From: an uncultured Candidatus Saccharibacteria bacterium
GTDB lineage: Bacteria > Patescibacteriota > Doudnabacteria > UBA920 > 2-02-FULL-46-11
Length of the DNA: 64,000 nucleotides
Assembly: GCA_964609765.1 (NCBI GenBank)
Contig: CAZSSD010000001.1
Coordinates: 45,282-109,281, forward strand
Direction of reading: 5' to 3'
Of the stretch, positions 2,794 through 64,000 are shown in pieces; the first letter of the stretch is position 1, and the number at the start of each line of letters is the position of its first letter. The notes under the pieces are model-generated. The model worked only from the letters and a program-made list of their open reading frames with translations, did no database searches and had not been told where the DNA came from. A program made the position numbers and the translations under genes.

Positions 2794-4209
2794 ATGAAAA
2801 AAACAGAGTATGTGTTTTTATGGGGAAATACGCAAAGCTGCTTTACTTTTGAAGGCAATACAAATTGCTTGGTTAGATTTCCGGACAATCCTTGGAATAA
2901 AGCGCTGGAGGCGATGATAACGGTTGTTAAAGATAACAAAGCATCTTGTTATGTTTCTCAAAAAAGCATAGATAACAATATTAAGTTAGGTAGGCAGTTT
3001 TTAGATGCGAGATACGTAAAAATATTTCTCCAAAATATTCACCGTGTTACGGTCCGACATGATCGACTATTTAAGGAGTTAGACAAACTTAATTATAGAA
3101 GCCTCGGTGACGAAGAACTGCTAAATTATTTTATAAAAATATTAAATCAATGGTCAGATACCATTGGCTATTTTCGCGGTACGCAAATGGAGGGCACCCA
3201 AGTATTAGCTAATAAAATTAATAAATTAGTCGGGCCCGAAGAAGCGGCTACGCTGATTTTGCCAACAGACCTGGATCCGGTAAACCGGGAAGAAAAAGAT
3301 TGGCGAAAGCTACTCAAAAGGCCATTTAGTAAAAAAAGTATTTTTAATCATCTGCAAAAATACCCATGGCTTGTTCCTTATCACGTTGCGCTTGATCAGG
3401 CTTACCGGACTATGCAAGACCGCTACAAGCAAGGTAGGGGAGTCTTTGAGAATCGGGATATCAGAAAGGAAAAGGCCGATCTTAAAAGAAAACAGGGCGC
3501 AATATTTAAACAGTACCCTAACGCGGAAAGGCTGGTGAAGCTTATGCAGCAATTGGCTCTGGCCAGGATAAATCTGAAATCCTATTGGGGTGGCACCGAC
3601 TTTTATTTAATGCCTTTGTACGCAGAAATGGCCAGGCGCAGCGGTGAGCCGATAGCTGATATCTTTAACTATTATTTGATTGAAGAATTGAAAGCATTGT
3701 TGAATAGAAGAAAGCTGACAAGGGAAGAAAAGCAAAATCGAAAAAGATGCTTTGTATTTTTATGGAAAAAAGGGAAAATTATTATACGCTCTGGTGATGC
3801 GGCTGAAAAATTATCTAAGAAAGAGTTGGGAAGCCTAACCGAAACGGGAAACGCAAATGAGCTTAAGGGCTTTTGCGCCAATCCGGGTAAAATTACTGGC
3901 GTTGTCAGAATTTTTGAGGCCAATAATTATAAAAAAGCAAATGCTTTGCGTAAATCATTTGGAAGCGGCGAAGTATTGGTAACTCAAATGACTCAGCCAA
4001 ATATAGTTGATATTGCCAAAAAAGCGGTGGCCATTATTACTGACGAGGGCGGTATGCTTTCCCATGCCGCTATTATCTCAAGGGAGTTTGGCATTCCATG
4101 TGTGGTGGGGACCCATATTGCTACGCAAGTCTTAAAAGACGGCGATTTGGTGGAAGTTGACGCTAATAAAGGATTGGTTAAAATTTTGAAGCGGAAAAAT
4201 GCCAATTGA
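2794..4209 (+). CDS. PEP-utilizing enzyme mobile-domain protein (paralog 3)
   Basis: C-terminal VLVTQMTQPNIVDIAKKAVAIITDEGGMLSHAAIISREFGIPCVVG. Confidence 0.7.
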   Translation: MKKTEYVFLWGNTQSCFTFEGNTNCLVRFPDNPWNKALEAMITVVKDNKASCYVSQKSIDNNIKLGRQFLDARYVKIFLQNIHRVTVRHDRLFKELDKLNYRSLGDEELLNYFIKILNQWSDTIGYFRGTQMEGTQVLANKINKLVGPEEAATLILPTDLDPVNREEKDWRKLLKRPFSKKSIFNHLQKYPWLVPYHVALDQAYRTMQDRYKQGRGVFENRDIRKEKADLKRKQGAIFKQYPNAERLVKLMQQLALARINLKSYWGGTDFYLMPLYAEMARRSGEPIADIFNYYLIEELKALLNRRKLTREEKQNRKRCFVFLWKKGKIIIRSGDAAEKLSKKELGSLTETGNANELKGFCANPGKITGVVRIFEANNYKKANALRKSFGSGEVLVTQMTQPNIVDIAKKAVAIITDEGGMLSHAAIISREFGIPCVVGTHIATQVLKDGDLVEVDANKGLVKILKRKNAN

Positions 4210-5704
4210 TTTTAAAAAATGGCAGTTTGAATTTACGCAGCGCAACAGCCACCCTATTTTAATGGCTGATTTTTGGACGCGCGCCATGTATCATTACTTC
4301 CCCGAGGAAATAAAGTTACCTTTGGGGGGCCGTGATTACATATATACTGGGAAAAACAGTGGTTATGTAAAGAAAAATCAAAAGCAGGAGCTCTTAAAGA
4401 TACTTAAAAACGCCGTTTCAAGAGAGCCATATTTGCATTATGTTTATAAAAAGACACTGGCTCGGGTGGCGCAATTCGAAAAAGTTGCCGATGATATTTC
4501 TAAACAACTAAATGGCCAAATAAGCCAGAAGGACATTTTAAATTTTTGGTTAAGATTTGATGATCATTTTTGTAAGTTAATTCCGTGGTTTTTTATACCC
4601 TATTACATTACCGAAGAAAATTTTTTAGTTGATAAAATCAAACAAAGGCTGGAAAACTACAAAAAAGAGGTTGAGGAAATAACAGATTTTAACAACGCCT
4701 TGGCCATACTCGTTCAGCCCAGAATAAAAATGTATTTTCAGCAAGAGCAATATGACTTTTATAAATTGGTATCATATGCTGAAAAGTATAAAAATTTTGA
4801 AAAAGACAGAAAATTTACTGAACTAGCCAATAAGTATTTAGTTAAATATGGCTGGACCAGTACGTATCTAGTTCTGCCCTTGGTGCCACTATCACTAAAA
4901 GTGTTAATTAAACGAGTTCACGCCGCTCTAAAAAATAAATTTACGCGCCAGTATTTACTGCAAAGACAAACCGCGGTTAAAAACAAAAGAGTGGCAGCGA
5001 AATTGTTAAAATTATTGGCGCGCGATAAAGGGCTCCTAAAAAACATCAACTGGGCGCAAAAATATGCTTGGCTACTCACAGCCAGCGTAGAACGATCCCT
5101 TATCGCCACTTTTAAGCTGCAGAATTTTTACAGATTGATCAGCCTAGCCGCCGGCATTAAATATGCCGATTGGATTCATCTAACGTCTGTCGAAATTAAA
5201 CAGGCTCTGGCCGGAAGCCTAAAGATTTCCATGCAGGAAATTGCTAAAAGAAAAAGCGGATATTTTTATATTTTTGAAAATGGCAAGCCAAGCTTGTACA
5301 CTGGCGCTAAGGCCAGAGCGCTAACTAAGCAACTTGAACGTGCTACTGCGGCATTGCCAACAAAAACAGATCAAATAGTCGGCCAACCGGCCTCCCCGGG
5401 CCAGGTTACTGGCAGGGTCAGGATTTGCCGATCAGCCGCCGAGGCGGCCAAATTGGGGCCCGGTGAGATATTGGTGGCTGTTATGACGACTCCGGACTAT
5501 GTACCGGCCATGAAACAGGCTGCGGCTATTGTAACAGACGAGGGCGGCCTTTTATCCCACGCCGCCATTGTATCTAGAGAACTAGGCAAGCCTTGTATAG
5601 TTGGGACAAAAATAGCAACTAGGTTGCTAAAATATGGCGATATGGTGGAAGTTGATGCCGGGAGCGGTATCGTAAAATTATTGGGTCATACCCTAAAACG
5701 TTAG
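4199..5704 (+). CDS. PEP-utilizing enzyme mobile-domain protein (paralog 4)
   Basis: C-terminal ILVAVMTTPDYVPAMKQAAAIVTDEGGLLSHAAIVSRELGKPCIVG. Overlaps the previous gene by 11 nt, suggesting translational coupling. Confidence 0.7.
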   Translation: MPIDFKKWQFEFTQRNSHPILMADFWTRAMYHYFPEEIKLPLGGRDYIYTGKNSGYVKKNQKQELLKILKNAVSREPYLHYVYKKTLARVAQFEKVADDISKQLNGQISQKDILNFWLRFDDHFCKLIPWFFIPYYITEENFLVDKIKQRLENYKKEVEEITDFNNALAILVQPRIKMYFQQEQYDFYKLVSYAEKYKNFEKDRKFTELANKYLVKYGWTSTYLVLPLVPLSLKVLIKRVHAALKNKFTRQYLLQRQTAVKNKRVAAKLLKLLARDKGLLKNINWAQKYAWLLTASVERSLIATFKLQNFYRLISLAAGIKYADWIHLTSVEIKQALAGSLKISMQEIAKRKSGYFYIFENGKPSLYTGAKARALTKQLERATAALPTKTDQIVGQPASPGQVTGRVRICRSAAEAAKLGPGEILVAVMTTPDYVPAMKQAAAIVTDEGGLLSHAAIVSRELGKPCIVGTKIATRLLKYGDMVEVDAGSGIVKLLGHTLKR

Positions 5705-19259: not shown

Positions 19260-20777
19260 CTAATTAACCGAATATCTGGTTAGGTAAATATCTCCCCGGT
19301 AAAGAAATACATCGGGGATTTTTTGTTCTTCTATTTGCAGCCAATTGGCCGGCACCTCCGGCTTGCTTCCGCCAAAGCCGGTTGTCCAGAGAAGCCAGAT
19401 GGTTTCGCCGCTCTGACCATAAGTTTTGAGATCACCAATAAAGTCGCCGTCATTTAAAAGGGCAGTACCGGAAAAGTGCGGCAGTTGCTCGGTCTGGGTG
19501 ATGCCCTTAAGGTAAAGAAGGGGATATGCTGGGGGGTTGGCCGCGCCCCATTGCTGATAATAATATTTGTAGCTGAAGTAAATGAAGGTCGAAGCGACGA
19601 CTATTTTGTCGCTAGGCTGATAATTGCCAAACAAGTATTCAGAAGTGGCTCGCATACCGGGGTGATTTTTTACATCCAGTTGCTGCCATCTATCCGCAAA
19701 GAAAATGACACTGGCCAGTATAAGCAGGATGAGCAGGCCGGAGCCTAAGCGCTGCCATTTAATACTAGCCAGAGCGAGCGCGATGAAAGCTACGATAAAT
19801 ACGGCCGCAAAAATAAAATATCGATCAAGATAAAGAGCGGTCCGCAATGAAATAAGGATGGCCAGTACAAATGGGACAAAGCCCATCAGCACAAGCAGGA
19901 TTTTGTCGAGTTTGCGATAGCGCCAAAGATAAACCAAAAGCAGAAACACGAAAGCGACCGAAGCGACAATTAAAATATTATTGGCGATGCCCTGCCAACC
20001 ACTGATCAGTATTTTCCAAATTGTCGCGGGTACGCTCCAACGCTCCATTTCGGGAATCCAATAATTTTGCTCGACCTGACTGAACTGGCGCCAAAAAGTA
20101 GGCAGCCACCAGCTTGAGAGCACTCCGGCCAGAATAAATGACGCGGCCCATTTTAGATTTTGCCTGGCTAGAACGGGACGGTATTTTTTTAGCCACCAAA
20201 TTAAAATAAATAGGCCTTGGGCGGCAAGAGAAAAGAGTAAGAAATAATGTGTGAGCGCCGAGGCGCTGGTCAGTATGGCAAAGGCTAGCCACCATGGCCA
20301 CCGATTTGTGCGCAAAGCTTTAAGCATCACCCAGGTTCCCAACACTATTAAAAAAGTCCCCAGCGTGTACATGCGTGCTTCCAAAGAATATTGAATATGG
20401 AAGGCGTTAACGGCTAAAAGCGCGGCCGCGCCCCAGGCCAGTTTTTTACCTTCGTCCGCTGGATAATCTTTAAATATTTCCCTGACTAATACATAGAGCA
20501 GCCAGACGGTAGCCACGCCAAAAAAAACCGAAAAACCGCGCAAAGATTCCAAACTGTGTCCAAAGACGCTGGCCCAGACCCGTAACAACCAATAATAAAA
20601 AGGCGGATGCACATCCAAGGCAATGCGCTGCATCATTTCGCTAAAGGGCATGCGGATAAGCAAAGCCGAAAATGCCTCGTCGTGCCAAAGGGCGAGAGCG
20701 GTATAATCCCATAGCCTGACTACTAAAGCGGTCGCTAAGATAAAGGGCAGCAATAGTTTGTTAAGAAGGTTGTTCAT
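19260..20777 (-). CDS. GT39-family (PMT/ArnT-like) membrane glycosyltransferase
   Basis: Polytopic, with LWHDEAFSAL (DE motif in the first periplasmic loop), typical of family 39 / ArnT-type transferases. Confidence 0.75.
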   Translation of the reverse strand: MNNLLNKLLLPFILATALVVRLWDYTALALWHDEAFSALLIRMPFSEMMQRIALDVHPPFYYWLLRVWASVFGHSLESLRGFSVFFGVATVWLLYVLVREIFKDYPADEGKKLAWGAAALLAVNAFHIQYSLEARMYTLGTFLIVLGTWVMLKALRTNRWPWWLAFAILTSASALTHYFLLFSLAAQGLFILIWWLKKYRPVLARQNLKWAASFILAGVLSSWWLPTFWRQFSQVEQNYWIPEMERWSVPATIWKILISGWQGIANNILIVASVAFVFLLLVYLWRYRKLDKILLVLMGFVPFVLAILISLRTALYLDRYFIFAAVFIVAFIALALASIKWQRLGSGLLILLILASVIFFADRWQQLDVKNHPGMRATSEYLFGNYQPSDKIVVASTFIYFSYKYYYQQWGAANPPAYPLLYLKGITQTEQLPHFSGTALLNDGDFIGDLKTYGQSGETIWLLWTTGFGGSKPEVPANWLQIEEQKIPDVFLYRGDIYLTRYSVN

Positions 20778-22461
20778 AAATTTCCATAATTACTTCTCCA
20801 AAACGATTATATTCCCGTTTTATGAGTTTGGCGTCGGGATAATACCGTTGGAAGGCTTGGCTGTCATACAGACTCGACTGTGTAAAAACAACCTGATCGC
20901 CGGGAAGGAGCTGCAGGCCAAATCTTTCATGCTCGTAGCGTCCGATGCGTACCTGATCGGGTCCCTGCCAAAGACTGGCCGGGTCGACAACTTGATAGGG
21001 CTGTTTGGTTTGTGTGGTCAGATACTGGGGCGTTTGTTCGGAGAACCAATCGATAACCAAATAGGTTTTTTCTTTATGGGCGCGCTCATTTAAATACTGG
21101 CTGACTGCGGTCAGATCAGAACGAAAAGCGTAAGCGTAGGCCGGTGAGTTGCCGGCGACCCCGAAATAAAGGTTGATGCCATAAACTGCTTCGGCGCCTA
21201 ACAGCACGATTAGCAAAAGGGCGGCTAGTTTTTTTCTAATGGTCCAGCCCAGGCCTTGTTCGTGCGGAAAAGTGGTTAATATTTCCTCGATAAAAAGGGC
21301 GGCTATGACAAAGGTAATCGGAATCACGCCAATTAAACGCAGCCCATGGGGAATGCCTTCGGCCGTGAGTAATTCCGGGACCAGCATTAAGTAGAACCAG
21401 AGCGCCATGACGAAAAATGTCAATCTTTTTAAATTGATGGCATATGCTATTTTTTCGCGGTGTTTGCGGAAAGCTTGAACGAAAAATATAACCGCCTGCA
21501 CGGTGACGGCCAGCAGTCCGACTACAAAAAGCGGCGCGATCAGATAAGAAAGAAAGGGATACCCCGATACATTGTGCCGCCAGTTCAGATCTCCGCCGGT
21601 GATGAAGCCAAGGGCCGTCTTTTTAAAAACGACCAGAAAGGTGCCGATTAAATCGCCCTGGTTCAGTTCAGGGGAAAAAATGGAAACCTGGCCGGTGCGG
21701 CCGGCCAGCCATTCCGGTTTTCTTATAAAATAAAGGGCGAGCGGAACGAGAGCGGCGGCGAAACTGATGGTCCCGGCCAAAACCGCCGGCCAGTAGCGCC
21801 TCGCGAGCTGCCATTTTGGTTGGTTGCGCAGGTCGATAATTATAAGCATGACCAAAGCCAGCCCGACCAGGGGAATCATCATGCGGTATGAAATATAGGT
21901 ATAAAAACCCAATCCAAAAGCCAGGCCAGAAAAAACAGCGCAGGTCCAATACTCCAGACGCGATTTGGCTTGGGCAACCCGGGTCGCAAAGTAGAAAAAT
22001 AGTAAAGTAAAAAGCGGCGCCGTGTTGGCGCGAAATGCGGTGCGGCTCAAAGTGATATACCAGCCGCTTACGGCTGTCAGAAACGCGGCCACAAAGGCCA
22101 GGCGCGCGTTAAACCAACGCCGTATTAAAAGATAAGTCAAAAGTACAACCAGTACGCCCATGGTCGCAGACACTAAATGGTGGGCTAAAGGCGTCCGGCC
22201 CAAAATGGCGACGGCCGGCGTGAGCAAATAAAAAAAGAGCGCTTCACGCCCGTTGCCGCGTTCGTAGAACGGCTGCAGCTTGCCGTTTAAGATACTATTT
22301 ATATCGAGCCCATTGGCCGCTTCGTCCGGAAATAAGCCGCCGGGCAAACTGCCCAACCCGGTGTAACGCAGAATCGCCGCCACAGAAACCAGAATCAACA
22401 ATGGCCCGTAGTTTTTTAACCATTTTTTGCCTTCATGATAGGCCCCTTTTAAGTTTTCCAT
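20761..22461 (-). CDS. GT39-family (PMT/ArnT-like) membrane glycosyltransferase, tandem paralog
   Basis: Polytopic, with ...GLFPDEAANGLD... as the DE motif. Overlaps the downstream paralog by 17 nt. Confidence 0.75.
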   Translation of the reverse strand: MENLKGAYHEGKKWLKNYGPLLILVSVAAILRYTGLGSLPGGLFPDEAANGLDINSILNGKLQPFYERGNGREALFFYLLTPAVAILGRTPLAHHLVSATMGVLVVLLTYLLIRRWFNARLAFVAAFLTAVSGWYITLSRTAFRANTAPLFTLLFFYFATRVAQAKSRLEYWTCAVFSGLAFGLGFYTYISYRMMIPLVGLALVMLIIIDLRNQPKWQLARRYWPAVLAGTISFAAALVPLALYFIRKPEWLAGRTGQVSIFSPELNQGDLIGTFLVVFKKTALGFITGGDLNWRHNVSGYPFLSYLIAPLFVVGLLAVTVQAVIFFVQAFRKHREKIAYAINLKRLTFFVMALWFYLMLVPELLTAEGIPHGLRLIGVIPITFVIAALFIEEILTTFPHEQGLGWTIRKKLAALLLIVLLGAEAVYGINLYFGVAGNSPAYAYAFRSDLTAVSQYLNERAHKEKTYLVIDWFSEQTPQYLTTQTKQPYQVVDPASLWQGPDQVRIGRYEHERFGLQLLPGDQVVFTQSSLYDSQAFQRYYPDAKLIKREYNRFGEVIMEIYEQPS

Positions 22462-22496
22462 TTTTTGTTTAGAAGTGGTAGAATAGAGCTAAAGTT

Positions 22497-22898
22497 ATGC
22501 GAAATTTCAGTAATTTTAAAAGATTTTTATCTTTTGGGCACTGGGCGCGTTTAAAGCCCCGTTCGGCTTCGGTCAAAGACGGCATTATTTTTTGGGGCAC
22601 TTGTTTGAGTTTCCTCCTGATAATCATACTAATTGTTTTAATTGTCTTCAAGTTAAGGCCGTCGTCGGAATTAACATCCGTTCACTACAATATTTTAATT
22701 GGCGTAGATGAAGTGGCCAACGGTCTGCAAATATACGGTTTTGCTCTGGTGGCGGTCTTGGTGTTGATTTATAATTTAATGTTGGCTAAAAAGTTTTATC
22801 GTTTTGAACCGTTTGCCTCGTATTTATTAGTGATTGGTTCCGTGTTGGTTTCGGCTGTTTTGCTCGGGGCCGTAATATCGCTTACTCATTTGCCTTAA
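22497..22898 (+). CDS. small membrane protein (133 aa), hypothetical
   Basis: Three predicted TM helices. Divergent from the GT39 pair and upstream of the GT2 gene. Confidence 0.4.
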   Translation: MRNFSNFKRFLSFGHWARLKPRSASVKDGIIFWGTCLSFLLIIILIVLIVFKLRPSSELTSVHYNILIGVDEVANGLQIYGFALVAVLVLIYNLMLAKKFYRFEPFASYLLVIGSVLVSAVLLGAVISLTHLP

Positions 22899-22946
22899 TT
22901 TGTTTGTGAAGTATCAATAAAGCGGCCGGGCAGGGCCTTTTGTATT

Positions 22947-24638
22947 ATGTCGGCACCACTCATGCATCAAAGTCGTAATCCACACCGCCAACGCTCCGCC
23001 CGAGAGAGGGTTTTTGAGATTATACCGGCGGCATTAGTCTGGTTGAGTTTGGGTTTGGCGGTTTATTTTTCCTTTACACATCCGGCTTGGGCCGCCGTCT
23101 ATATTATTGTCTTTGACGTTTATTGGGTTTTAAAGGCCATTAATACCACCCTGCATCTTTTGTCGTCCTATAACCATTACCAACATGATCTAACGATGGA
23201 TTGGTTTGCGGGGGTAAAAATGTTGAGGCACAAAGAGGACCTGATCCGTGTTTTAACAGAGCGGAAAGCCCAAGCGCGGCGAGCCTGGCGCGGTCTGATT
23301 AGCCGCGAAATCGAAAGAGTAAACGCCGCGCAAATCAAACGGGACTATGATCAGATTTACCACGTTGTCCTGTTCCCCTTTGTTGATGAAAGCTTTGAAC
23401 TTTTACGGACAAGCGTTGAAGCCATACGTCAGAGCAATTACCGGCTTGATCGCGTGATTATCCTGCTGGCGGCAGAAGAGCGAGCGGCGGCACAGGCCCA
23501 AGCTACGGCCCAAAAATTGCATGATGCTTATCAAGATGTTTTTCGCGGCTTTTTAGTAAGCACGCATCCCGACAACTTGCCGGGCGAAATCAGGGGTAAA
23601 AGCGCCAATGCCAGTTTTGCCACAGAACATGTTTTGTTACCATGGCTCGCGCAAAACAATATCCCGCTCGAAAATGTCATAATGAGCAATTTAGATTCGG
23701 ACACGGTGGTCCACAGGCAGTATTTGGCCAGAGTGACTTATGAATGGCTTTTAGCGGCTGATCCTCATCGCCGCAGTTACCAGCCAATCACCTTGTATAA
23801 CAACAATATGTGGGACTCGCCGGCCTTGGTGCGGGTAGTGGCGGTGGCTAACTCTTTCTGGCAATTTATGGAATCTTCGCGGCCCGACCGCTTGCGCACT
23901 TTTTCGAGCCACAGCATGAGCCTGAAGACTTTGCGCGAGGTTGGTTTTTGGAAAAAAGAAATCGTCAACGAGGATGGTTTTATTTTTTGGCAATGTTACC
24001 TGCATTTTAACGGCCAGTATAGCACGGTGCCGTTATTTATTCCGGTGTCCATGGACACTTGCGTGGCGGAAGACTACAAGCAGACCTTGATTAATCAGTA
24101 CAAGCAAAAGCGGCGCTGGGCATATAATGTTGAATATTGGCCGCATCTGGTGCCAAAATTGTTGGGCAATAAAAAGATTCCTTTGCCTGACCGGCTTTAT
24201 AAATTTTGGCAGTATGTTGAAGGTAATTATAACTGGGCTACTGCCAGTATTGTCATTGCCACCATGGGCTTTTTACCGTCTTTCTTGGGCGACAATTTCA
24301 CGGGTACGGTTTTGGGCTACAATTTGCCCTATGCCACGCGCTTAATGATGAACATCGCCCTTGTTTTCTTGATTGCCTCGGTGTACGTGAATATGATTTT
24401 GCTGCCGCCCCGGCCTGCGAAATACAAATGGACGCGCACGGCGGCTATGTACGCGCAATGGGTTTTAGTGCCTTTTATCTCAATCATCTGGGGCTCAATT
24501 CCTTCTTTAGAAGCCCAGACGAGGCTGGCTTTGGGGAAATATATGGAATTTTGGGTGACACCGAAGCCGCGATCCGTGATCGAAAAATCCGAAATTCGAA
24601 TATCGAAACCCGAAACTGCCTTAAATTTAAAAAATTAA
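22947..24638 (+). CDS. processive family-2 glycosyltransferase (cellulose/chitin-synthase-like)
   Basis: N- and C-terminal TM helices; DxD (NLDSDTV), an ED-like motif (VNEDGF) and QKRRW (QxxRW). Confidence 0.65.
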   Translation: MSAPLMHQSRNPHRQRSARERVFEIIPAALVWLSLGLAVYFSFTHPAWAAVYIIVFDVYWVLKAINTTLHLLSSYNHYQHDLTMDWFAGVKMLRHKEDLIRVLTERKAQARRAWRGLISREIERVNAAQIKRDYDQIYHVVLFPFVDESFELLRTSVEAIRQSNYRLDRVIILLAAEERAAAQAQATAQKLHDAYQDVFRGFLVSTHPDNLPGEIRGKSANASFATEHVLLPWLAQNNIPLENVIMSNLDSDTVVHRQYLARVTYEWLLAADPHRRSYQPITLYNNNMWDSPALVRVVAVANSFWQFMESSRPDRLRTFSSHSMSLKTLREVGFWKKEIVNEDGFIFWQCYLHFNGQYSTVPLFIPVSMDTCVAEDYKQTLINQYKQKRRWAYNVEYWPHLVPKLLGNKKIPLPDRLYKFWQYVEGNYNWATASIVIATMGFLPSFLGDNFTGTVLGYNLPYATRLMMNIALVFLIASVYVNMILLPPRPAKYKWTRTAAMYAQWVLVPFISIIWGSIPSLEAQTRLALGKYMEFWVTPKPRSVIEKSEIRISKPETALNLKN

Positions 24639-24667
24639 GTTTCTTGAACTTGTTTTATGCTTCGCCT

Positions 24668-24687
24668 GCCTGCCGGCAGGCAGGGAT
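24668..24687. promoter_or_regulatory. perfect 20-bp palindrome CCTGCCTGCCGGCAGGCAGG (terminator or operator)
   Basis: 10-bp perfect inverted repeat with no loop, lying between the GT2 gene and the GT4 gene. Confidence 0.4.
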
Positions 24688-24707
24688 TTAGAATTACGAA
24701 TTTAAAT

Positions 24708-25772
24708 ATGATAATTTTCTTTTGGATATTTCTGCTGGCGTTAGCGGTTTCCGTTTTGGCCACCGCCATCGTTCGAAAAATTTCTATCAAAAAAGGAGTT
24801 TTCGATTTGCCTAATGTGGAGCCCGCCCGGCGGGCGCACGATAAACCCAAACCGCTGCTGGGCGGCCTGGGTTTAATTCTCACTTTTGACGTTCTAACCG
24901 CACTGCTTTATTTTTTATTGCCCCTCTTGAAAGATAATATTCCTTTGGTAAGTATGCTTGCCATTTGGGCCGGCAGCCTCATTCTTGGTTTGGGCGGCGC
25001 CATCGATGACATTAAGAACCTAAAGCCGGGCCAACAGTTGTTTTTTACAATTCTGGCCGTACTGGCCGTGGTTGTTTCGGGCATGGGCGTGCCTCATATC
25101 ACTAATCCCTTAGGCGGCAAAATACCCCTTACCGGTCCGGCCATTGGCGGTATTGGGCTGGTTAGCGCCGCCTTTGTCTTTTTCTGGATTTTGGGCATGA
25201 TTTATACGACTAAATTTTTAGATGGCTTAGACGGGCTCGCTTCAAGCATTAGTTTGGTAGCCACTCTTTCTTTGTTTGCCCTATCGTTTACGCCGCAGGT
25301 TATGCAACCTTATACGGCCGTGCTGGCCGCGGTGTTGGCCGGCAGCCTGCTCGGGTTTTTGATATTTAACTGGTACCCATCGAAAATATTTTTGGGCGAG
25401 GCCGGCAGTACGTTCCTCGGTTTTATTTTGGGAATTCTGGCCATTATTGCCGGCGGAAAAGTGGCCACAGCCTTCTTGGTTATGGGTGTGCCCATTTTGG
25501 ATGTGGCTTGGGTAATTTTGCGCCGAATTTATACCGGCCAATCTCCGTTTAAGGCCGATCGCCTGCATTTGCATTTCCGTCTTTTAGATCTCGGCTTAAG
25601 CCACCGGCAAACCGTGGCCGTCTTTGTATTGTTTTCGGCTGCATTTGGCGGCACGGCCGTACTTTTGCAATCCTTTGGCAAGTTTATATCCCTTTTGATA
25701 TTACTACTTGTCATGCTGGCTTTCGGTCTGTTCGTGGTTTACTTAACCCGCCGCCGACGCTTGACCCCGTAA
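24708..25772 (+). CDS. GT4-family polyprenyl-phosphate HexNAc-1-phosphate transferase (WecA/TagO-like), not MraY
   Basis: DDIKN... and ...FNWYPSKIFLGEAGSTFLGF... are MraY/WecA superfamily motifs. It lacks the MraY HHH motif (has LHLHFR). Start placed at ATG 24708, downstream of the palindrome. Confidence 0.7.
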   Translation: MIIFFWIFLLALAVSVLATAIVRKISIKKGVFDLPNVEPARRAHDKPKPLLGGLGLILTFDVLTALLYFLLPLLKDNIPLVSMLAIWAGSLILGLGGAIDDIKNLKPGQQLFFTILAVLAVVVSGMGVPHITNPLGGKIPLTGPAIGGIGLVSAAFVFFWILGMIYTTKFLDGLDGLASSISLVATLSLFALSFTPQVMQPYTAVLAAVLAGSLLGFLIFNWYPSKIFLGEAGSTFLGFILGILAIIAGGKVATAFLVMGVPILDVAWVILRRIYTGQSPFKADRLHLHFRLLDLGLSHRQTVAVFVLFSAAFGGTAVLLQSFGKFISLLILLLVMLAFGLFVVYLTRRRRLTP

Positions 25773-27017: not shown

Positions 27018-27110
27018 GGAGAGGTAGCCAAGCGGCCAAAGGCGCCGGGGTGTTACTCCGGTGATCGGGTCAATACCTGGTCTGCGTGGGTTCGAATCCC
27101 ACCCTCTCCA
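27018..27110 (+). tRNA. class II (long variable arm) tRNA, Tyr/Ser-like D-arm; the anticodon loop reads gUGUUAc (apparent GUU)
   Basis: Acceptor GGAGAGG/CCTCTCC plus discriminator A. D-arm GCC-AAGCGGCCAAA-GGC. Anticodon stem CCGGG/TCCGG. 24-nt variable arm. T-arm GTGGG-TTCGAAT-CCCAC. No encoded CCA. Confidence 0.75.
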
Positions 27111-57784: not shown

Positions 57785-58705
57785 ATGATAGAACGAAATT
57801 TGATTATTATTGGTTCGGGACCGGCCGGGCTAACCGCCGCCATCTATGCGGCGCGAGCCAATTTATCGCCGCTGGTTATCTCTGGATTGCAACCCGGTGG
57901 GCAGTTAACCCAAACCACGGAAGTGGAAAACTACCCGGGTTTCCCCGAAGGCATTCTAGGGCCGGAATTAATGGACAAGTTTAAAAAGCAGGCCGGCCGT
58001 TTTGGCGCTGAATTTGTCGATAGCGCCGTAGAAAGCGTAGATTTCGCAAGGCAGCCTTTTAAGGTAAAGGTGGCTGCTACGGAGTATAGCGCCAAGGCAG
58101 TTATTATTGCCACTGGCGCTTCCTCAATCTGGTTAGGTTTGCCTAAAGAGCAAGAATTAATAGGGCACGGCGTTTCATCCTGCGCCACCTGTGATGGCTT
58201 CTTTTTCCGGAATAAGGACATAATTGTGGTGGGTGGGGGCGACAGCGCCATGGAAGAGGCCACTTATTTAAGCAAATTTGTCAAAAGTATTAAAGTTGTG
58301 CATCGCCGCGGCGAACTAAAAGCCAGCAAAATTATGCAGGAGCGGGCCATGAATGACCCTAAAATTTCTTTTATCTGGAATACGGTGGTAGAAGAGTTGG
58401 TGGGCGATACTAAACTAGCGGGCGTCAAGCTGCGCAACGTGGAAACCAATAAAATTACGGAAATGCCGATCGATGGAATGTTTGTGGCTATCGGACATAA
58501 GCCCAACACCGGGGTGTTCAAGGGCCAGATAGATTTAGATGAGGTAAAAGGTTATATTAAAGTCCATGATCATACCAGGACCAACATTGAGGGCGTTTTT
58601 GTGGCGGGGGATGTGCATGACCATCATTACCGCCAGGCCGTGACCGCGGCCGGCTTTGGCTGCATGGCGGCGATGGACGCGGAGAAGTATCTGGGCTCGC
58701 GTTAG
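57785..58705 (+). CDS. trxB: thioredoxin reductase
   Basis: GSGPAGLTAAIYAAR (FAD), CATCDGFF (redox CxxC) and GGGDSAME (NADPH). Confidence 0.9.
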   Translation: MIERNLIIIGSGPAGLTAAIYAARANLSPLVISGLQPGGQLTQTTEVENYPGFPEGILGPELMDKFKKQAGRFGAEFVDSAVESVDFARQPFKVKVAATEYSAKAVIIATGASSIWLGLPKEQELIGHGVSSCATCDGFFFRNKDIIVVGGGDSAMEEATYLSKFVKSIKVVHRRGELKASKIMQERAMNDPKISFIWNTVVEELVGDTKLAGVKLRNVETNKITEMPIDGMFVAIGHKPNTGVFKGQIDLDEVKGYIKVHDHTRTNIEGVFVAGDVHDHHYRQAVTAAGFGCMAAMDAEKYLGSR

Positions 58706-58979: not shown

Positions 58980-59468
58980 ATGTCAGAGCCACTGTTCAGC
59001 CAAAACGGCCGGCGCATTACGTTCTACTGCGGTCTGGGCAGTACGAACTGCTACGCCAGGCAGGGTAGCAATGAGGAGCTGATCATCACGGACGGCGATG
59101 TGTTGACCGCACTTGGGCTGGTCTTCGCAGCCCGCGCGGATCTCGCCGATGTCTTCGAGCAGGCGCATTGGACCCGGAGCTACGCGCAGGAGACCGCCGA
59201 CATACTCGGCGCGGTCAGGTTCCAGGGCACCTCGTCCTCTCAGCCCAGGGTTAAGATAGATGTCGACGTGTCGGAATGCCGTTTGGAGTTCTATGGCGAG
59301 TTTCTGAAGGTAACCCTGCCGACTCACTGGTTCCTCAACAGGCTGCTTGACTTCCTTGCAAGGCACCCGCAACTTCCCGAGATCAGTGCGGCCCGGTTGA
59401 ACGCAAGCGCTTTGCGCGAGGGCTGGGCGGAGTTTGCCCGCACCCGATCGTCGCCTAGCGGCCGCTGA
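58980..59468 (+). CDS. hypothetical protein (162 aa) in a second high-GC island; probable horizontally acquired ORFan
   Basis: GGAGG RBS 5 nt before the ATG. High GC3 in this frame only. Strong terminator downstream. Both flanks are AT-rich. Confidence 0.5.
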   Translation: MSEPLFSQNGRRITFYCGLGSTNCYARQGSNEELIITDGDVLTALGLVFAARADLADVFEQAHWTRSYAQETADILGAVRFQGTSSSQPRVKIDVDVSECRLEFYGEFLKVTLPTHWFLNRLLDFLARHPQLPEISAARLNASALREGWAEFARTRSSPSGR

Positions 59469-59491: not shown

Positions 59492-59530
59492 GCCACCGGA
59501 GCCACGCGCCCGGTGGCTTCGGATTTTTTG
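59492..59530 (+). terminator. rho-independent terminator (GCCACCGG...CCGGTGGC plus TTCGGATTTTTT); an adjacent opposite-strand hairpin at 59536-59560 terminates trxA
   Basis: 8-bp GC stem followed by a T-tract. The second hairpin, AAACCACCC-gac-GGGTGGTTT, has its A-run on the + strand. Confidence 0.6.
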
Positions 59531-59565: not shown

Positions 59566-59886
59566 TTAGAAATGGGCTTTGAGTTTTGCTTCAATAATAC
59601 TTTTGGGAACGACACCGATCACTTCGTCTACAACCTCGCCGTTTTTGAAAATTTTTAAATTTGGAATAGACATAATATTATAACGGCCTGCTACCTCGGG
59701 GTTCTCGTCCACATTTAGCTTGGCAATTTTAACTTTTTCGGCGTGTTCCGCGGCAATCTCGTCAAGCACCGGCGCGATTACCCGGCAAGGCGCGCACCAT
59801 TCGGCCCAAAAGTCTACCAACACTAATTTGTCAGAGCCGGTCACTTCACTGTCAAAACTTTGATCGGTCACAGTCACAGCATTCAT
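59566..59886 (-). CDS. trxA: thioredoxin
   Basis: FWAEWCAPCR active site; 106 aa. Confidence 0.9.
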   Translation of the reverse strand: MNAVTVTDQSFDSEVTGSDKLVLVDFWAEWCAPCRVIAPVLDEIAAEHAEKVKIAKLNVDENPEVAGRYNIMSIPNLKIFKNGEVVDEVIGVVPKSIIEAKLKAHF

Positions 59887-60001
59887 GTTTTTTTAGCTTT
59901 GTTAATAATAGCTTTAACAACATAACAAAAGTAAAACGGCTTGGCAACTGTTTCCCAACTTACAAAAAATTCATTATAATAAACAAAGTAGGTAAAGCAA
60001 A

Positions 60002-60985
60002 ATGGATACAAATCTGACGCCGGACCACCCAAAATTGGCAATACTCAAAAGAGCCCTGCAAGGCAAGAATCTTGCTATTTTAGTATTCATTCTTATTTTG
60101 TTGCTTTTCTTCTATGGTCGCGGCGAAGAGGGTATTGTCGAGAGTGCCGCTTCCGCTCAAACTATGAGCAGTCACCCGCCCTTACCTGTTCAAAATTCCA
60201 TTTTAGAATCGCGGCCGGCGCTCAAAAATGGCATTGAGCCAAATTCAATAACCTTAACGGCCAGAGCTGGAATTGTCTACGAACTGGATTCCCAAAAAGT
60301 GCTCTACAGCAAGAATATTGAGCAACCTTTGCCCGTCGCGAGTTTGACCAAACTGACCACGGCTTTGCTGGTTTCCAGGCATTTATCGCCCGAGCAGGTT
60401 GTTACGGTAGACAACCAAAAATTGTCGGATATTGCTGACCCAAAACTTGATCTCGTTTACGGCGAAAAGATCCGAGTCGGCGATTTGGTAGAGGGGATGC
60501 TCGTGGCTTCGGCTAATGACGCGGCCGAGGTCTTGGCCGAGGCTGTGGGTAAAGGGGATAGGCAGAAGGCCGTTGTCATGATGAACTCATTGGCTTCCAA
60601 TCTAGGCCTTAAGAGCACTCATTACGCCAATCCGACTGGCTTTGACCACCCAAGTGGGTATTCCACAATCCTGGACGTCCTGACCGTAGTTTTTGAAGTT
60701 GAGCGTACGCCTTGGTTGATGTCTTTATTGTCCGAAAGCAGGGGAGAAGTGCGGTCCGTTGATGGAAAGCTTACACATCGCTTTAATACGACCAACCGAT
60801 TATTGAGCACTGATTATGTCACGGGCGGTAAAACCGGGTTTACCGACGGCGCCCTGGGCAATTTAGTTGTTTTTGCCAAAAGCCCCAACCAGTCGCCGCT
60901 CGTGGCTATTATTATCGGCAGTGAAGACCGCGAGGGTGAAATGCAAAGGCTGCTGGAATGGACCTTTGCCTCCTATAATTGGTGA
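60002..60985 (+). CDS. D-alanyl-D-alanine carboxypeptidase (S11, PBP5-like), membrane-anchored
   Basis: N-terminal TM segment; ASLTKLTT (SxxK), SANDAA (SxN) and KTGFT (KTG). Confidence 0.8.
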   Translation: MDTNLTPDHPKLAILKRALQGKNLAILVFILILLLFFYGRGEEGIVESAASAQTMSSHPPLPVQNSILESRPALKNGIEPNSITLTARAGIVYELDSQKVLYSKNIEQPLPVASLTKLTTALLVSRHLSPEQVVTVDNQKLSDIADPKLDLVYGEKIRVGDLVEGMLVASANDAAEVLAEAVGKGDRQKAVVMMNSLASNLGLKSTHYANPTGFDHPSGYSTILDVLTVVFEVERTPWLMSLLSESRGEVRSVDGKLTHRFNTTNRLLSTDYVTGGKTGFTDGALGNLVVFAKSPNQSPLVAIIIGSEDREGEMQRLLEWTFASYNW

Positions 60986-61008
60986 GTTATAATTTAGTGG
61001 CTTAAAAT

Positions 61009-62073
61009 ATGACCGAACAATTTTTTCCAATCGTCAGAATACTTTTTTTTACATTCGTTGCTTTTAGCTTAAGTTTTTGGGCGACTCCGCTTTTGACCCA
61101 CTTTTTGTACAAATACAAATTTTGGAAACCCAAGGTGCGCACGCTGGGGCTTGACGGCCAACCGACGCCGATTTTTTCAAAACTGCACGCCGATCGGGAA
61201 ATAAATACTCCCCGCATGGGCGGAGTTTTAATTTGGGTGATATCGGGGCTAGTGGTTTTGGCCGGATTTATTATTTCTCGCTTTTCTTCAAATGCTGAAT
61301 TTTGGAATGTTTTAGACAGAGGCCAAACTTGGCTTCCCCTCTTCACGCTCCTTACGGCTGGCGTGATCGGCGCCCTTGACGACGTACTGGTCATCAAGTC
61401 CCGGGGCGCTTATGTGGGCGGCGGGCTGGCTATGAAATGGCGTCTGCTTTTGGTGGCCATTATTGGCTTAATCGGAGCCTGGTGGTTTACCTCAAAACTC
61501 GGTTTTAGCGAGATCTTTGTGCCCTTCGTAGGCAATCTTGATATTGGCTGGCTTTACGGACCCCTTTTTGTGATTGTGCTCTTCGCCACGTTTTCATCCG
61601 GCGTCGTGGACGGATTAGACGGCCTTTCCGGCGGGGTCTTTGCCACTATATTTTTGGCCTACGCCGCCATCGCTTACTCGCGCGGTCAATTTGAGCTCGC
61701 CACCTTTTGCGCGATTTTACTCGGCACCATGTTGGCCTATTTATGGTTTAATATACCGCCGGCGCGCTTTTATATGGGCGAAACCGGCATCCTCGCTTTA
61801 ACTACCACGTTAACCGTGGTCGCTTTTCTGACTAATGCGGTGCTGCTCCTGCCAATTGCGGGCATCATTTTGGTGGCCGAAACCGGGTCAGTAATTATAC
61901 AATTGCTCTCGAAAAAGTTTCGTCACGGCAAGAAAGTATTTTTGTCCGCGCCGCTGCACCATCATTTTGAAGCCCAAGGCTGGCCCCATTACAAGGTGAC
62001 TATGCGGTTTTGGGTAATTTCGGCTGTTTTTTGCCTGTTGGCGCTGCTTATTTATTTGGTCGGCCCTCGATAG
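61009..62073 (+). CDS. mraY: phospho-N-acetylmuramoyl-pentapeptide transferase
   Basis: NTPRMGGVLIW (the MraY KxGTPTMGG-type motif), DDxxD-like motifs, and PLHHHFE. Confidence 0.85.
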   Translation: MTEQFFPIVRILFFTFVAFSLSFWATPLLTHFLYKYKFWKPKVRTLGLDGQPTPIFSKLHADREINTPRMGGVLIWVISGLVVLAGFIISRFSSNAEFWNVLDRGQTWLPLFTLLTAGVIGALDDVLVIKSRGAYVGGGLAMKWRLLLVAIIGLIGAWWFTSKLGFSEIFVPFVGNLDIGWLYGPLFVIVLFATFSSGVVDGLDGLSGGVFATIFLAYAAIAYSRGQFELATFCAILLGTMLAYLWFNIPPARFYMGETGILALTTTLTVVAFLTNAVLLLPIAGIILVAETGSVIIQLLSKKFRHGKKVFLSAPLHHHFEAQGWPHYKVTMRFWVISAVFCLLALLIYLVGPR

Positions 62074-62129
62074 CTTGTGGTAAAATAGAAGAGCGCGCAA
62101 TCGTTTAGAAATCAAAATTAAATGCTGCC

Positions 62130-63734
62130 ATGCTGGACGTTCTGATAAAAAACGGTATTGTCTTTGACGGCACTGGCCAGGGCCATGGCGTGCGCCGCGA
62201 CATCGGCGTCCAAAATGGCGCAATTGTTTCGCTGGGCGATACGCCGCGGGCTAACGCCCATGAGGTAATCGATGCCGAGGGTCTTTATGTGGCCCCGGGC
62301 TTTATTGATATTCAGAACCATTCTGATAGCCATGGTTTGATCTTAAATAAGCCGGGGCTTGAGAGTATGGTCGCCCAGGGCGTGACCACGATTTGTGTTG
62401 GCCAGTGCGGCGCGTCTTTGGCTCCTTTGCCCGTTCTTTCTTCAATCAAATCTCTTCAAAAATGGGGCGGGTTCGAGGGTATTAATGCCGATTGGCGGTC
62501 CTTCGCGGAGTTTAGAGACCGCTTGGGTCCTAATTTATTTGGCGCCAATATTGCCAGTTTTGTCGGACACGGCACTTTGCGCAGGGCTTTTACCGGCGAC
62601 TCGGCGCGCGAGTTAACTCCCGACGAAATTAACCAGCTGGCCCTGATCCTGCGCCAAGCCTTAAACGAAGGCGCATTTGGCGTGTCTTTCGGTTTTCAAT
62701 ACGGCCACGAGATTAAAACAAGCGTGGCCGAGGTTTTAGCTCTGCTATCGGTGGCTAAGGAATTTGAGAGTATTTTTAGTCTGCATTTGCGCTCACAAGA
62801 TGAATCTTTACTGCAGTCAATTTCCGATGTTTTAGAAATCGCCCGGGCCGTGGGTGTTAAAACCAAGATCTCGCATCTCAAAGTGGAAGGCCTCAAGAAT
62901 AAGCACCAACTCGATCAGGGTTTGCGGCTCATTGAAAACGAATATCAGGCCGGTACGCCGATCCGGTTCGATGTTTATCCCTACACCACCACCTGGCGGT
63001 CACTTTACACTTACTTGCCCAGCTGGGCCTACGAGGGGGGCTTTCAGCCGATGCTCGAAAGGATGAAGCAGAAATCAGGAAAAATGCGCATATTAACACA
63101 GCTTGGCGAGAACCGCAGGCATTTGGCTGATTTGCTGGTCACAACCAGTCCCAAAGTTTACGGGTTTGTCGGCAAAACCGTGGCTCAAATCTCACACGGC
63201 CAGGGCTTAACACCCGAACAGGCCGTGTTGAACATTCTTTCGGCTAATCATGGCCAGACTGTTGTTTTTGATCATAATGTTGACCCCGGCCAGGTGACGT
63301 CTTTGCTTAAACACCCCTTGTCTTTTGTCGCTAGCGATGGCGTTGGTTATCCTTTTAACGAGCCTCTCGAATCAGAACTGCCCCATCCCCGTTGTTTTGG
63401 CACTTTTCCGCGTTTCCTGCGCATGCTCCGCAACGATAATGATGAGACTAATACCCTGCCGCTCTTGTCCTGGGCCGAGGGCTTGGCCAAAATCACGGGT
63501 TGGCCCGCTCAATTTTTAGGCTTAAGCAACCGCGGCTTTATTAGGAAAAATTATCGGGCCGACATCGTTGTTTTTGATCCCGACAATATTTCTGATTTGG
63601 CCACGTATACCAACCCCTTTAAGGCGCCGCAGGGCGTGCGTTATGTGCTTAACAACGGCAAGATCAGTCTTTTTGAAGGTCAGCTCACGGGTGTTTACGG
63701 TGGCCGCCTACTTAAGACTGCGAGCGCGGCTTAA
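62130..63734 (+). CDS. D-aminoacylase-family amidohydrolase (N-acyl-D-amino-acid deacylase-like)
   Basis: LDVLIKNGIVFDGTG...VIDAEGLYVAPGFIDIQNHSDSHG is the classic N-terminus of the D-aminoacylase/Amidohydro_3 family. Confidence 0.75.
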   Translation: MLDVLIKNGIVFDGTGQGHGVRRDIGVQNGAIVSLGDTPRANAHEVIDAEGLYVAPGFIDIQNHSDSHGLILNKPGLESMVAQGVTTICVGQCGASLAPLPVLSSIKSLQKWGGFEGINADWRSFAEFRDRLGPNLFGANIASFVGHGTLRRAFTGDSARELTPDEINQLALILRQALNEGAFGVSFGFQYGHEIKTSVAEVLALLSVAKEFESIFSLHLRSQDESLLQSISDVLEIARAVGVKTKISHLKVEGLKNKHQLDQGLRLIENEYQAGTPIRFDVYPYTTTWRSLYTYLPSWAYEGGFQPMLERMKQKSGKMRILTQLGENRRHLADLLVTTSPKVYGFVGKTVAQISHGQGLTPEQAVLNILSANHGQTVVFDHNVDPGQVTSLLKHPLSFVASDGVGYPFNEPLESELPHPRCFGTFPRFLRMLRNDNDETNTLPLLSWAEGLAKITGWPAQFLGLSNRGFIRKNYRADIVVFDPDNISDLATYTNPFKAPQGVRYVLNNGKISLFEGQLTGVYGGRLLKTASAA

Positions 63735-63741
63735 ATCTAGC

Positions 63742-64000
63742 CATGACCAAGCCAAATTTAAGCAATCCCAATTATGCCCTGCTAAGCTTGATTGTAGTTT
63801 TTCTGTTTTTGGGCATCACCGCCATCGCCTCGGCCTCATCGGTTATCTCTTGGAATAACCACGCCAATACCTATTACTATCTCGTGCACCAAATTCTTTT
63901 TGGCATAGTGCCCGGGATTATTTTGATGTTTATCGCGAGTCGTATCAATTATCGTTTTTGGCGGGCGATTTCGCCCTTTTTGCTTTTGCTGGCGCTTTTT
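63742..64000 (+). CDS. SEDS-family protein (FtsW/RodA), 3'-partial at the window end
   Basis: N-terminal TM helices (ALLSLIVVFLFLGITAIASASSV...). The position after mraY favours FtsW. Confidence 0.6.

Follow-up and report, generated by a model that had tools for sequence, protein, structure and literature searches.

In the 64-kb window studied here, meaning the whole 64,000-nucleotide stretch of contig CAZSSD010000001.1, a 534-aa amidohydrolase of the D-aminoacylase type is encoded between mraY and ftsW, where the canonical division and cell wall (dcw) gene order would place murD. Our comparison across relatives shows that this amidohydrolase is a conserved extra gene at the mraY/murD junction of bacteria of the candidate phyla radiation (CPR; Patescibacteria), and it probably serves an undescribed accessory step of precursor synthesis rather than standing in for murD. 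A sporadic insertion would be less interesting than this finding, and a replaced murD would be more radical. The explanation that we favor, and hold to be about evenly balanced against all others together, is that the enzyme is a CPR-wide extra member of the peptidoglycan-precursor operon, which would hydrolyze an N-acyl-D-amino-acid bond of the L-Ala-D-Glu type for salvage at the MurD step or for control of the precursor pool.

A conserved extra gene beside the D-glutamate step

Scanning one genome per species gave 339 relatives, and the gene neighborhoods described here are those of the best 80 of the 339. The immediate neighbors of the amidohydrolase in these loci are as follows.

Directly upstream: MraY, 65/80 loci
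Directly upstream: glutamate racemase, 7/80 loci
Directly downstream: MurD, 59/80 loci
Directly downstream: FtsW, 10/80 loci
Directly downstream: MurL-MurD fusion, 2/80 loci
Directly downstream: PgeF, then MurD, 2/80 loci
Directly downstream: phosphoenolpyruvate (PEP)-utilizer-domain protein, then MurD, 2/80 loci

MraY or MurD is within reach in 78 of the 80 loci, and the spacers between the amidohydrolase and mraY or murD often amount to a few nucleotides or are overlaps. The neighboring MurD proteins are bona fide (TIGR01087 at 327-395 bits, against a cut-off of 212). The same pattern recurs on 38 further contigs in a JGI metagenome scan, and in more than 100 related CPR lineages the amidohydrolase adjoins genes that make or add D-glutamate. 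Homologs from soil metagenomes with 28-32% identity, taken as a control, have none of these wall-gene neighbors. The original prediction had suggested a role in D-amino-acid or stem-peptide salvage, with which the conserved neighbors are consistent, and had also considered that murD might have been replaced; the latter idea is not supported, since amidohydrolase and MurD stand side by side in 59 of the 80 species and are thus not alternatives.

Three Doudnabacteria loci have the order thioredoxin gene (trx, on the minus strand), S11, mraY, amidohydrolase, murD, ftsW, DUF4012, murJ and lepA. The DUF4012 protein, 600-700 aa long and present between ftsW and murJ in most Doudnabacteria loci (e.g. 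L001 13980-16073; L numbers denote loci of relatives), is without an NCBIfam assignment and looks like a further uncharacterized member of the wall operon. A Paceibacteria-like group, including the complete chromosome OZ246412.1 (L079 type), has S11, mraY, amidohydrolase, ftsW and murG, with the amidohydrolase exactly in the classical murD slot, while its sister lineages have mraY, amidohydrolase, murD, ftsW and murG. On one groundwater contig (L147 7450-15603), about 8 kb separates the amidohydrolase from murD. No fusion of the amidohydrolase with a Mur, MraY or other second domain was found in the longest homologs (P0121, P0123, P0208, P0163 and P0210) among 1.84 billion representatives; P0121 (1077 aa) and P0123 (955 aa) consist of two D-aminoacylase-like amidohydrolase copies in tandem.

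The gene stays by the D-Glu step however D-Glu is made. Seven Moraniibacteriota-type species have the arrangement murI-amidohydrolase-murD away from mraY, with a racemase scoring 215 bits against TIGR00067 (cut-off 147). Two Moraniibacteriota species without the racemase have, downstream of the amidohydrolase, a MurL-MurD2 fusion of 814-817 aa (L051 11605-14058; L058 11583-14027), whose MurL-like epimerase domain matches NF041275 (E 4.6e-104) and whose MurD half has Glu and Arg at the pair of sites on which the L-Glu specificity of Xanthomonas MurD2 depends, the canonical MurD residues being Asp182 and Lys348. The remaining adjacent MurD proteins have Asp/Lys (47) or Glu/Lys (19) at this determinant pair. 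In a review (PMC8788868), some Proteobacteria and rare actinomycetes are the only bacteria listed with the MurD2/MurL pathway. In two Doudnabacteria, pgeF (TIGR00726 at 155.8 bits, over the cut-off) lies between the amidohydrolase and murD (L022 11620-12357; L050 8136-8876). The murI, MurL-MurD2 and PgeF contexts therefore tie the amidohydrolase to the D-Glu step whichever route supplies D-Glu, and a D-Glu-centered substrate is favored by the repeated linkage to these genes and to murD. In the 64-kb window itself, MurL, PgeF and MurI were not found.

Identity and fold of the amidohydrolase

By sequence and predicted structure, the 534-aa protein is assigned to the D-aminoacylase subset (subtype V) of the amidohydrolase superfamily. 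In a single-sequence search of the PDB, its closest solved relatives are the D-aminoacylase of Alcaligenes faecalis DA1 (1M7J, E 2.5e-56) and an N-acyl-D-Glu deacylase (3GIP, E 1.9e-52), with the Klebsiella D-acylase KleDacyl (9G5M) and the sugar-acid deacetylase OngB (9KB1) also near. A family profile scores 1M7J, 9G5M, 3GIP and 9KB1 roughly equally (302-331 bits, E ~1e-90), and the CPR clade is, on these scores, about equally far from characterized D-acylases, D-Glu deacylases and OngB. The AlphaFold2 model (predicted local distance difference test 90.5; predicted template-modeling score 0.91) shows a three-part architecture of TIM-barrel, beta-sandwich and inserted alpha/beta lid domain. 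Its nine top Foldseek matches in the PDB all belong to the D-aminoacylase subset (3GIP, OngB, KleDacyl and AfaDacyl) at template-modeling (TM) scores of 0.89-0.92, and the next fold class, made up of hydantoinases, allantoinases and dihydroorotases, follows only at E ~1e-20. Identity as an isoaspartyl dipeptidase, dihydroorotase or hydantoinase was considered and rejected, as only the N-terminal ~90 residues match and the fold TM is 0.5-0.6.

Against the curated NCBIfam subfamily PRK09061, the protein reaches 156.8 bits (E 5.8e-46; cut-off 340), and the better of the two matching stretches covers only residues 2-292; the amidohydrolase belongs to a distinct clade under the curated threshold. 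The closest database proteins come from Candidatus Doudnabacteria and other CPR/Patescibacteria, to which this clade is restricted. Neither a signal peptide nor any hydrophobic segment is present, and the protein is therefore taken to be cytoplasmic. Neither Mur ligase domain, Mur_ligase_M with its ATP-binding P-loop or Mur_ligase_C, was found in it with Pfam. The view in the original prediction that this gene encodes a D-aminoacylase-family enzyme without a Mur ligase P-loop is thus upheld by PDB matches, fold and Pfam alike.

Active site and lid domain

Residue conservation was counted over 119 homologs, using the numbering of the window protein and 1M7J as the reference alignment; residue roles follow those described for the D-aminoacylase subset (PMC12149444, section 3.5; PMC12017989). 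C93, H219, H249 and D403 align with Cys96, His220, His250 and Asp366 of 1M7J. The beta-metal ligands C93, H219 and H249, the amide-oxygen residue Y191, and the carboxylate site formed by K251, Y283-P-Y285 and R421 are invariant in 119/119 homologs, and the catalytic Asp403 is kept in 116. The retained catalytic and carboxylate-binding residues suggest that the enzyme would cleave amides in which the amine is supplied by a D-alpha-amino acid whose alpha-carboxylate is free. In a bacterium that builds a wall, cytoplasmic bonds of this kind occur in L-Ala-D-Glu and longer recycled stem peptides, in D-Ala-D-Ala and at C-terminal D-Ala, and in the MurD product itself.

Two features set the family apart from its solved relatives. 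The H-x-H pair is not intact, as its first His (alpha site) is replaced by Gln (Q62-N-H64); this Gln is invariant in the 119 close homologs, and in CPR members further off, position 62 is occupied by His, Asn or Asp. A conserved family-specific insertion of ~35 residues, with the consensus SWSVLYTYLPKWAYEGG, follows the YPY hinge. This insertion belongs to the lid domain, which shapes the side-chain pocket, and aligns to no solved structure, either by single sequence or by profile. The window protein reads T-T-T-W-R-S-L-Y-T-Y-L after YPY. In Bb3285, the N-acyl-D-Glu deacylase of Bordetella bronchiseptica, Arg295 of the lid is said to pair with the side-chain carboxylate of D-Glu. Counting from the YPY hinge, the position held by Arg295 in Bb3285, Leu298 in AfaDacyl and Gln298 in OngB corresponds ambiguously to Leu296 or residue 298 of the window protein. 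Positions 298 and 305, basic in most relatives, are the candidates for a residue of this role.

Four positions that homology places in or near the side-chain pocket differ in the window protein, and several of them also differ in its closest relatives (L004, L005 and L006, which together with the window form the window clade). Position 223 is Glu in 115/119 homologs and Gln only in the window and L006, while L004 and L005 keep Glu; the equivalent residues, Glu226 of OngB and Glu220 of KleDacyl, touch the ligand side chain (PMC12017989; PMC12149444). Position 253 is Arg in 104/119 homologs and Glu in the window clade; position 298 is Lys or Arg in 114/119, Ser in the window, and Ser, Pro, Val or Asn across the window clade; and position 305 is Arg or Lys in 113/119 and Phe in the window clade. 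Given these changes (E223Q, R253E, the loss at 298 and R/K305F), the side-chain preference of the window clade has probably shifted away from an acidic residue.

The catalytic set is not retained everywhere. Asp403 is replaced by Asn in at least three separate lineages, including L007, L009, L078 and L080, and a six-species clade (L065, L069, L072, L075, L077 and L081) has Cys93 replaced by Ser as well. Genes with Asn403 or Ser93 are still found in the mraY-X-murD position (X being the amidohydrolase) and keep the carboxylate-binding residues; their products may be pseudoenzymes or may have altered chemistry.

Possible roles in precursor metabolism

We propose that the gene was inserted between mraY and murD and then kept beside the genes of the D-glutamate step, and that its product would be a soluble cytoplasmic metallo-amidohydrolase with one metal at the beta site. 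The substrate would be an N-acylated D-amino acid with a free alpha-carboxylate, the latter held by Lys251, Tyr283 and Arg421; the amide carbonyl would be placed on the Cys93/His219/His249 metal and Tyr191, and Asp403 would act as the general base for hydrolysis of the amide bond. The likeliest substrates would be peptidoglycan-derived peptides of the L-Ala-D-Glu type or other N-acyl-D-Glu compounds, and Bb3285 reportedly hydrolyzes both N-acyl-D-Glu and L-Xaa-D-Glu dipeptides. Flux could run in either of two directions, such that cleavage would free a D-amino acid for the MurD step or would clear unwanted products of that step. A salvage route from scavenged or recycled peptides would be fitting, because CPR organisms are host-dependent scavengers. 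In the window clade, murD has simply gone from its slot, leaving mraY-amidohydrolase-ftsW. A further reading is that the amidohydrolase marks a previously unrecognized CPR step at stem position 2, either releasing D-Glu or other D-amino acids from scavenged host wall peptides for MurD or proofreading the MurD product, with the window clade as a derived branch in which the pocket has changed and murD has been displaced; we rate this as just short of evenly balanced. Full-text literature searches returned no paper tying the D-aminoacylase family to CPR bacteria or to such a wall role. The novelty lies in the setting: a known enzyme chemistry is placed in a pathway context that is new and strongly conserved, and the active site has a signature of its own.

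Several observations weigh against hydrolytic salvage centered on D-Glu. The Gln at position 62 replaces the first His of H-x-H, and in OngB both histidines are needed, the H68A and H70A mutants being inactive (PMC12017989). The equivalent of Arg295 of Bb3285 falls in the unalignable ~35-aa lid insertion, and at 253, 298 and 305 the window protein has none of the basic residues found in most of its relatives. The Asn403 and Ser93 lineages suggest that hydrolysis may not be the conserved role. The adjoining MurL-MurD2 fusion uses L-Glu (PMC8788868), and salvage of free D-Glu makes little sense there; where a racemase is the neighbor, salvage is not the sole source of D-Glu. The unmappable specificity residue, the lost basic pocket residues, the MurD2 context and the Asn403/Ser93 lineages together keep alive two rivals, one based on proofreading and one on substrate binding.

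The first of these is unlikely in our estimate, and is drawn by analogy with PgeF, which acts at stem position 1: the amidohydrolase may proofread position 2, hydrolyzing mis-ligated UDP-MurNAc-L-Ala-D-Xaa or wrong cytoplasmic precursors so that only D-Glu precursors reach MurE and MraY. Its operon partners make and consume UDP-MurNAc-peptides, and what MurD makes is also an N-acyl-D-glutamate whose alpha-carboxylate is free. In L022 and L050, the gene separating the amidohydrolase from MurD encodes PgeF, a cytoplasmic amidase with a proven proofreading function (PMC12280929). Such editing would serve with either source of D-Glu, MurI or MurL-MurD2, which matches the persistence of the gene in both contexts. 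However, an editor must spare the correct D-Glu product, yet the basic residues conserved in the presumed pocket of most members suggest that an acidic side chain is bound, and MurD is not known as an error-prone enzyme.

It is distinctly unlikely that the protein is a general D-aminoacylase for nutrient scavenging or D-amino-acid detoxification, whose position is a historical accident kept by operon inertia. The physiological roles of D-aminoacylases are mostly obscure (PMC12149444), and the amidohydrolase does not always follow murD out of the cluster, as this explanation would allow. Its adjacency to wall genes nevertheless survives rearrangement in three arrangements (mraY-X-murD, murI-X-murD and mraY-X-ftsW), the linkage to MraY or MurD in nearly all of the 80 loci is difficult to ascribe to accident, and non-CPR homologs show no such linkage.

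A binding or scaffold role is very unlikely, although it would account for the lineages with substituted catalytic residues. The protein might bind the MurD product by its N-acyl-D-Glu end, or act as a regulator of MraY or MurD, with no hydrolysis needed, being a pseudoenzyme in some lineages; the Asn403 and Ser93 genes keep both their position and their carboxylate-binding residues, the very short spacers or overlaps that join it to mraY and murD point to coupled expression, and non-catalytic members of the amidohydrolase fold exist (CRMPs are among the distant fold matches). The full catalytic set in the window protein and most of its relatives nevertheless argues for an active enzyme, and the longer homologs are tandem amidohydrolase duplications rather than fusions with MraY or MurD. 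That the amidohydrolase functionally replaces MurD here, for example by reverse ligase action or through a different stem-peptide chemistry, comes close to negligible: it occupies the murD slot exactly in the window, in L004-L006 and in mraY-X-ftsW-murG clusters such as L079, and D-aminoacylase is reversible in vitro at high substrate concentration (PMC12149444), but it has no ATP-binding or Mur ligase domain, most orthologs share an operon with MurD, and amide synthesis without ATP is thermodynamically unfavorable in cells (textbook biochemistry).

The window cluster and a probably displaced murD

The four plus-strand genes of the cluster and the features ahead of them are listed here.

59566..59886, minus strand: thioredoxin gene (trx), Pfam Thioredoxin E 3e-32, the left-hand divergent neighbor of the cluster
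59952..59980, plus strand: promoter-like site TTCCCA-17-TATAAT, 22 nt 5' of the S11 start, by consensus match only
60002-60985, plus strand: S11 serine DD-peptidase, 327 aa, Peptidase_S11 E 2e-39
61009-62073, plus strand: MraY (phospho-MurNAc-pentapeptide translocase), 354 aa, divergent CPR form, Glycos_transf_4 E 4.9e-21
62130-63734, plus strand: D-aminoacylase-type amidohydrolase, 534 aa, Amidohydro_3 E 8.5e-20
63743..64000, plus strand: 5' part of ftsW (SEDS polymerase), ATG at 63743, continuing past the window end, by tblastn to the FtsW of L004

The order S11-mraY-amidohydrolase-ftsW runs on one strand with gaps of 8-56 nt, and the canonical mraY-murD-ftsW-murG order is not found in the window. 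The intergenic gaps between the four genes contain no convincing terminator, and the TTCCCA-17-TATAAT site is a possible candidate for the operon promoter. As in the window, trx on the minus strand lies ahead of S11-MraY in most Doudnabacteria relative loci. The ftsW open reading frame (ORF) is 53% identical over 81 aa to the FtsW of L004, its closest relative (tblastn, E 1e-24), and starts only 8 nt past the amidohydrolase stop, so there is no room for murD or a murD remnant between them. The non-canonical order that had been read from the sequence is therefore real, as judged by ORFs, Pfam and the FtsW match. The opposing scenario, in which murD lies just beyond the window and the amidohydrolase is a sporadic insertion, fails on both counts: FtsW directly follows, and the amidohydrolase is conserved in relatives.

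The S11 gene is found upstream of mraY in most relatives. Its product carries the SxxK, SxN and KTG motifs (S114-L-T-K, S170-A-N and K277-T-G), a hydrophobic N-terminal membrane anchor at about residues 17-46 and a catalytic domain alone at residues 84-307; its best NCBIfam matches, PbpG (an endopeptidase) and DacD, are far under their cut-offs, as are DacA and DacC. From these features it is predicted to be a membrane-anchored DD-peptidase, either a carboxypeptidase or an endopeptidase. A PBP5-like DD-carboxypeptidase had originally been called at this position; an S11 peptidase is indeed there, while the PBP5 label was an overstatement for a protein of 327 aa with an N-terminal anchor and without the C-terminal beta-sandwich domain and C-terminal amphipathic anchor of PBP5. 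MraY has the motifs D124-D125, D201-G-L-D-G and H317-H-H, and is 71% identical to the ortholog of L006/L086. Its best NCBIfam match is TIGR00445 at 162 bits, under the cut-off of 192, as against 37 bits for WecA; identity of 61009-62073 as WecA was rejected, the WecA-like paralog being the other Glycos_transf_4 gene of the window at 24657-25772.

No murD was found in the 64-kb window by tblastn with two Doudnabacteria MurD queries (best E 0.3), and there is no Mur ligase among its ORFs of 400-500 aa. The window also encodes mreB, mreC and a class B penicillin-binding protein (PBP), and the organism thus plainly builds a wall. In a neighbor-joining tree of the amidohydrolases, the window and L004, L005 and L006 (62-65% identity) form a small, deep, separate clade. 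All four have mraY-amidohydrolase-ftsW without murD between, as does L086, which comes from the metagenome scan and looks like the same organism as L006; that scan contained no closer relative of the window. L017, L044 and the Paceibacteria-like clade of the tree likewise have no murD beside the amidohydrolase, so that the adjacent murD has been lost at least four times. Since mraY, ftsW, S11, PBP and mreBC are intact and MurD is generally needed for the stem peptide, murD has likely been relocated elsewhere in the genome of the window. The supposedly universal mraY-murD adjacency is thus broken systematically in CPR bacteria.

Relationship to known systems

The best structural match is Bb3285 (3GIP/3GIQ, EC 3.5.1.82; Foldseek E 8e-48, TM 0.91, 28% identity), which shares with the window protein the three-part architecture, the Cys/His/His metal site, the catalytic Asp and the Lys/Tyr/Arg carboxylate site. 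Unlike Bb3285, the window protein has Gln for the first His of H-x-H, ~35 extra lid residues and no basic residues at 253, 298 and 305, and it is linked to the dcw cluster, a link not known for Bb3285. 1M7J and KleDacyl are 29-33% identical to the window protein over two long blocks (family profile 312-331 bits) and share its YPY hinge and the equivalents of Tyr191, Asp403 and Arg421. They differ in being H-x-H enzymes with hydrophobic or polar side-chain pockets, studied as biocatalysts and not encoded in cell-wall operons. OngB, the GlcNAc1A deacetylase of oxidative chitin catabolism, has the same fold as the window protein (TM 0.92); it is a beta-mononuclear Zn enzyme that binds its carboxylate with the same Lys/Tyr/Arg set (PMC12017989), and it shows that the D-aminoacylase fold can act on 2-acylamino carboxylates other than amino acids. 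Its sugar-binding Ser290, Ser292 and Gln298 are not evident in the window protein, for which the lid alignment is uncertain, and the context of the CPR gene is mraY, ftsW and murD, not chitin catabolism.

Two further systems resemble the amidohydrolase in setting rather than in kind. PgeF (YfiH) is a cytoplasmic amidase encoded among wall genes that trims unwanted residues from UDP-MurNAc-peptides (PMC12280929); the analogy is functional only, as PgeF is unrelated in fold and family and works on stem position 1. MurD2/MurL of Xanthomonas (PMC8788868) is likewise a case of an unusual gene by murD that serves the D-Glu step, but MurL is an ATP-dependent epimerase unrelated to amidohydrolases and absent from the window.

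Other features of the window

Four paralogs at 36-722, 779-1882, 2794-4209 and 4199-5704 share a C-terminal PEP-utilizer mobile (phosphohistidine) domain and have unassigned N-terminal parts. Three of the four are contiguous, and an unassigned 296-aa ORF (1888-2778) divides the second from the third. The PEP-utilizer protein found between amidohydrolase and murD in two Portnoybacteria-like genomes is a 536-aa homolog (L047 5156-6766; L054 8137-9747). A glycan cluster at 19260-25772 contains two PMT_2 (dolichyl-phosphate-mannose-type) transferases on the minus strand, a family 2 glycosyltransferase and the WecA-like gene mentioned above.

A tRNA at 27018-27110 (plus strand, 93-95 nt) is of class II shape, with a long variable arm; its D-loop resembles that of tRNA-Tyr and its discriminator is A, but the anticodon loop is G-U-[G-U-U]-A-C, and ARAGORN therefore calls it tRNA-Asn(GUU). 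Bacterial class II tRNAs are normally those for Leu, Ser or Tyr, and GUU is one base off the Tyr anticodon GUA.

Just ahead of the wall cluster, the segment 58700-59560 is GC-rich (58%, against ~47-49% in its surroundings) and contains an orphan 162-aa ORF (58980-59468) that matches nothing in Pfam or NCBIfam; after this ORF, at 59496-59522, comes a strong hairpin resembling a terminator. The GC-rich segment splits trxB (57785-58705, plus strand) from trx on the minus strand; because the two genes are adjacent and co-oriented in L004, the segment may reflect an insertion plus an inversion.

Implications for CPR bacteria

CPR/Patescibacteria make up a large and mostly uncultured share of bacterial diversity and rely on hosts for building blocks. 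The amidohydrolase is a concrete candidate for D-Glu salvage or precursor proofreading in their walls. It also adds a distinct branch, with Gln-x-His, a lid insertion and Asn-for-Asp lineages, to a family used industrially for D-amino-acid production.

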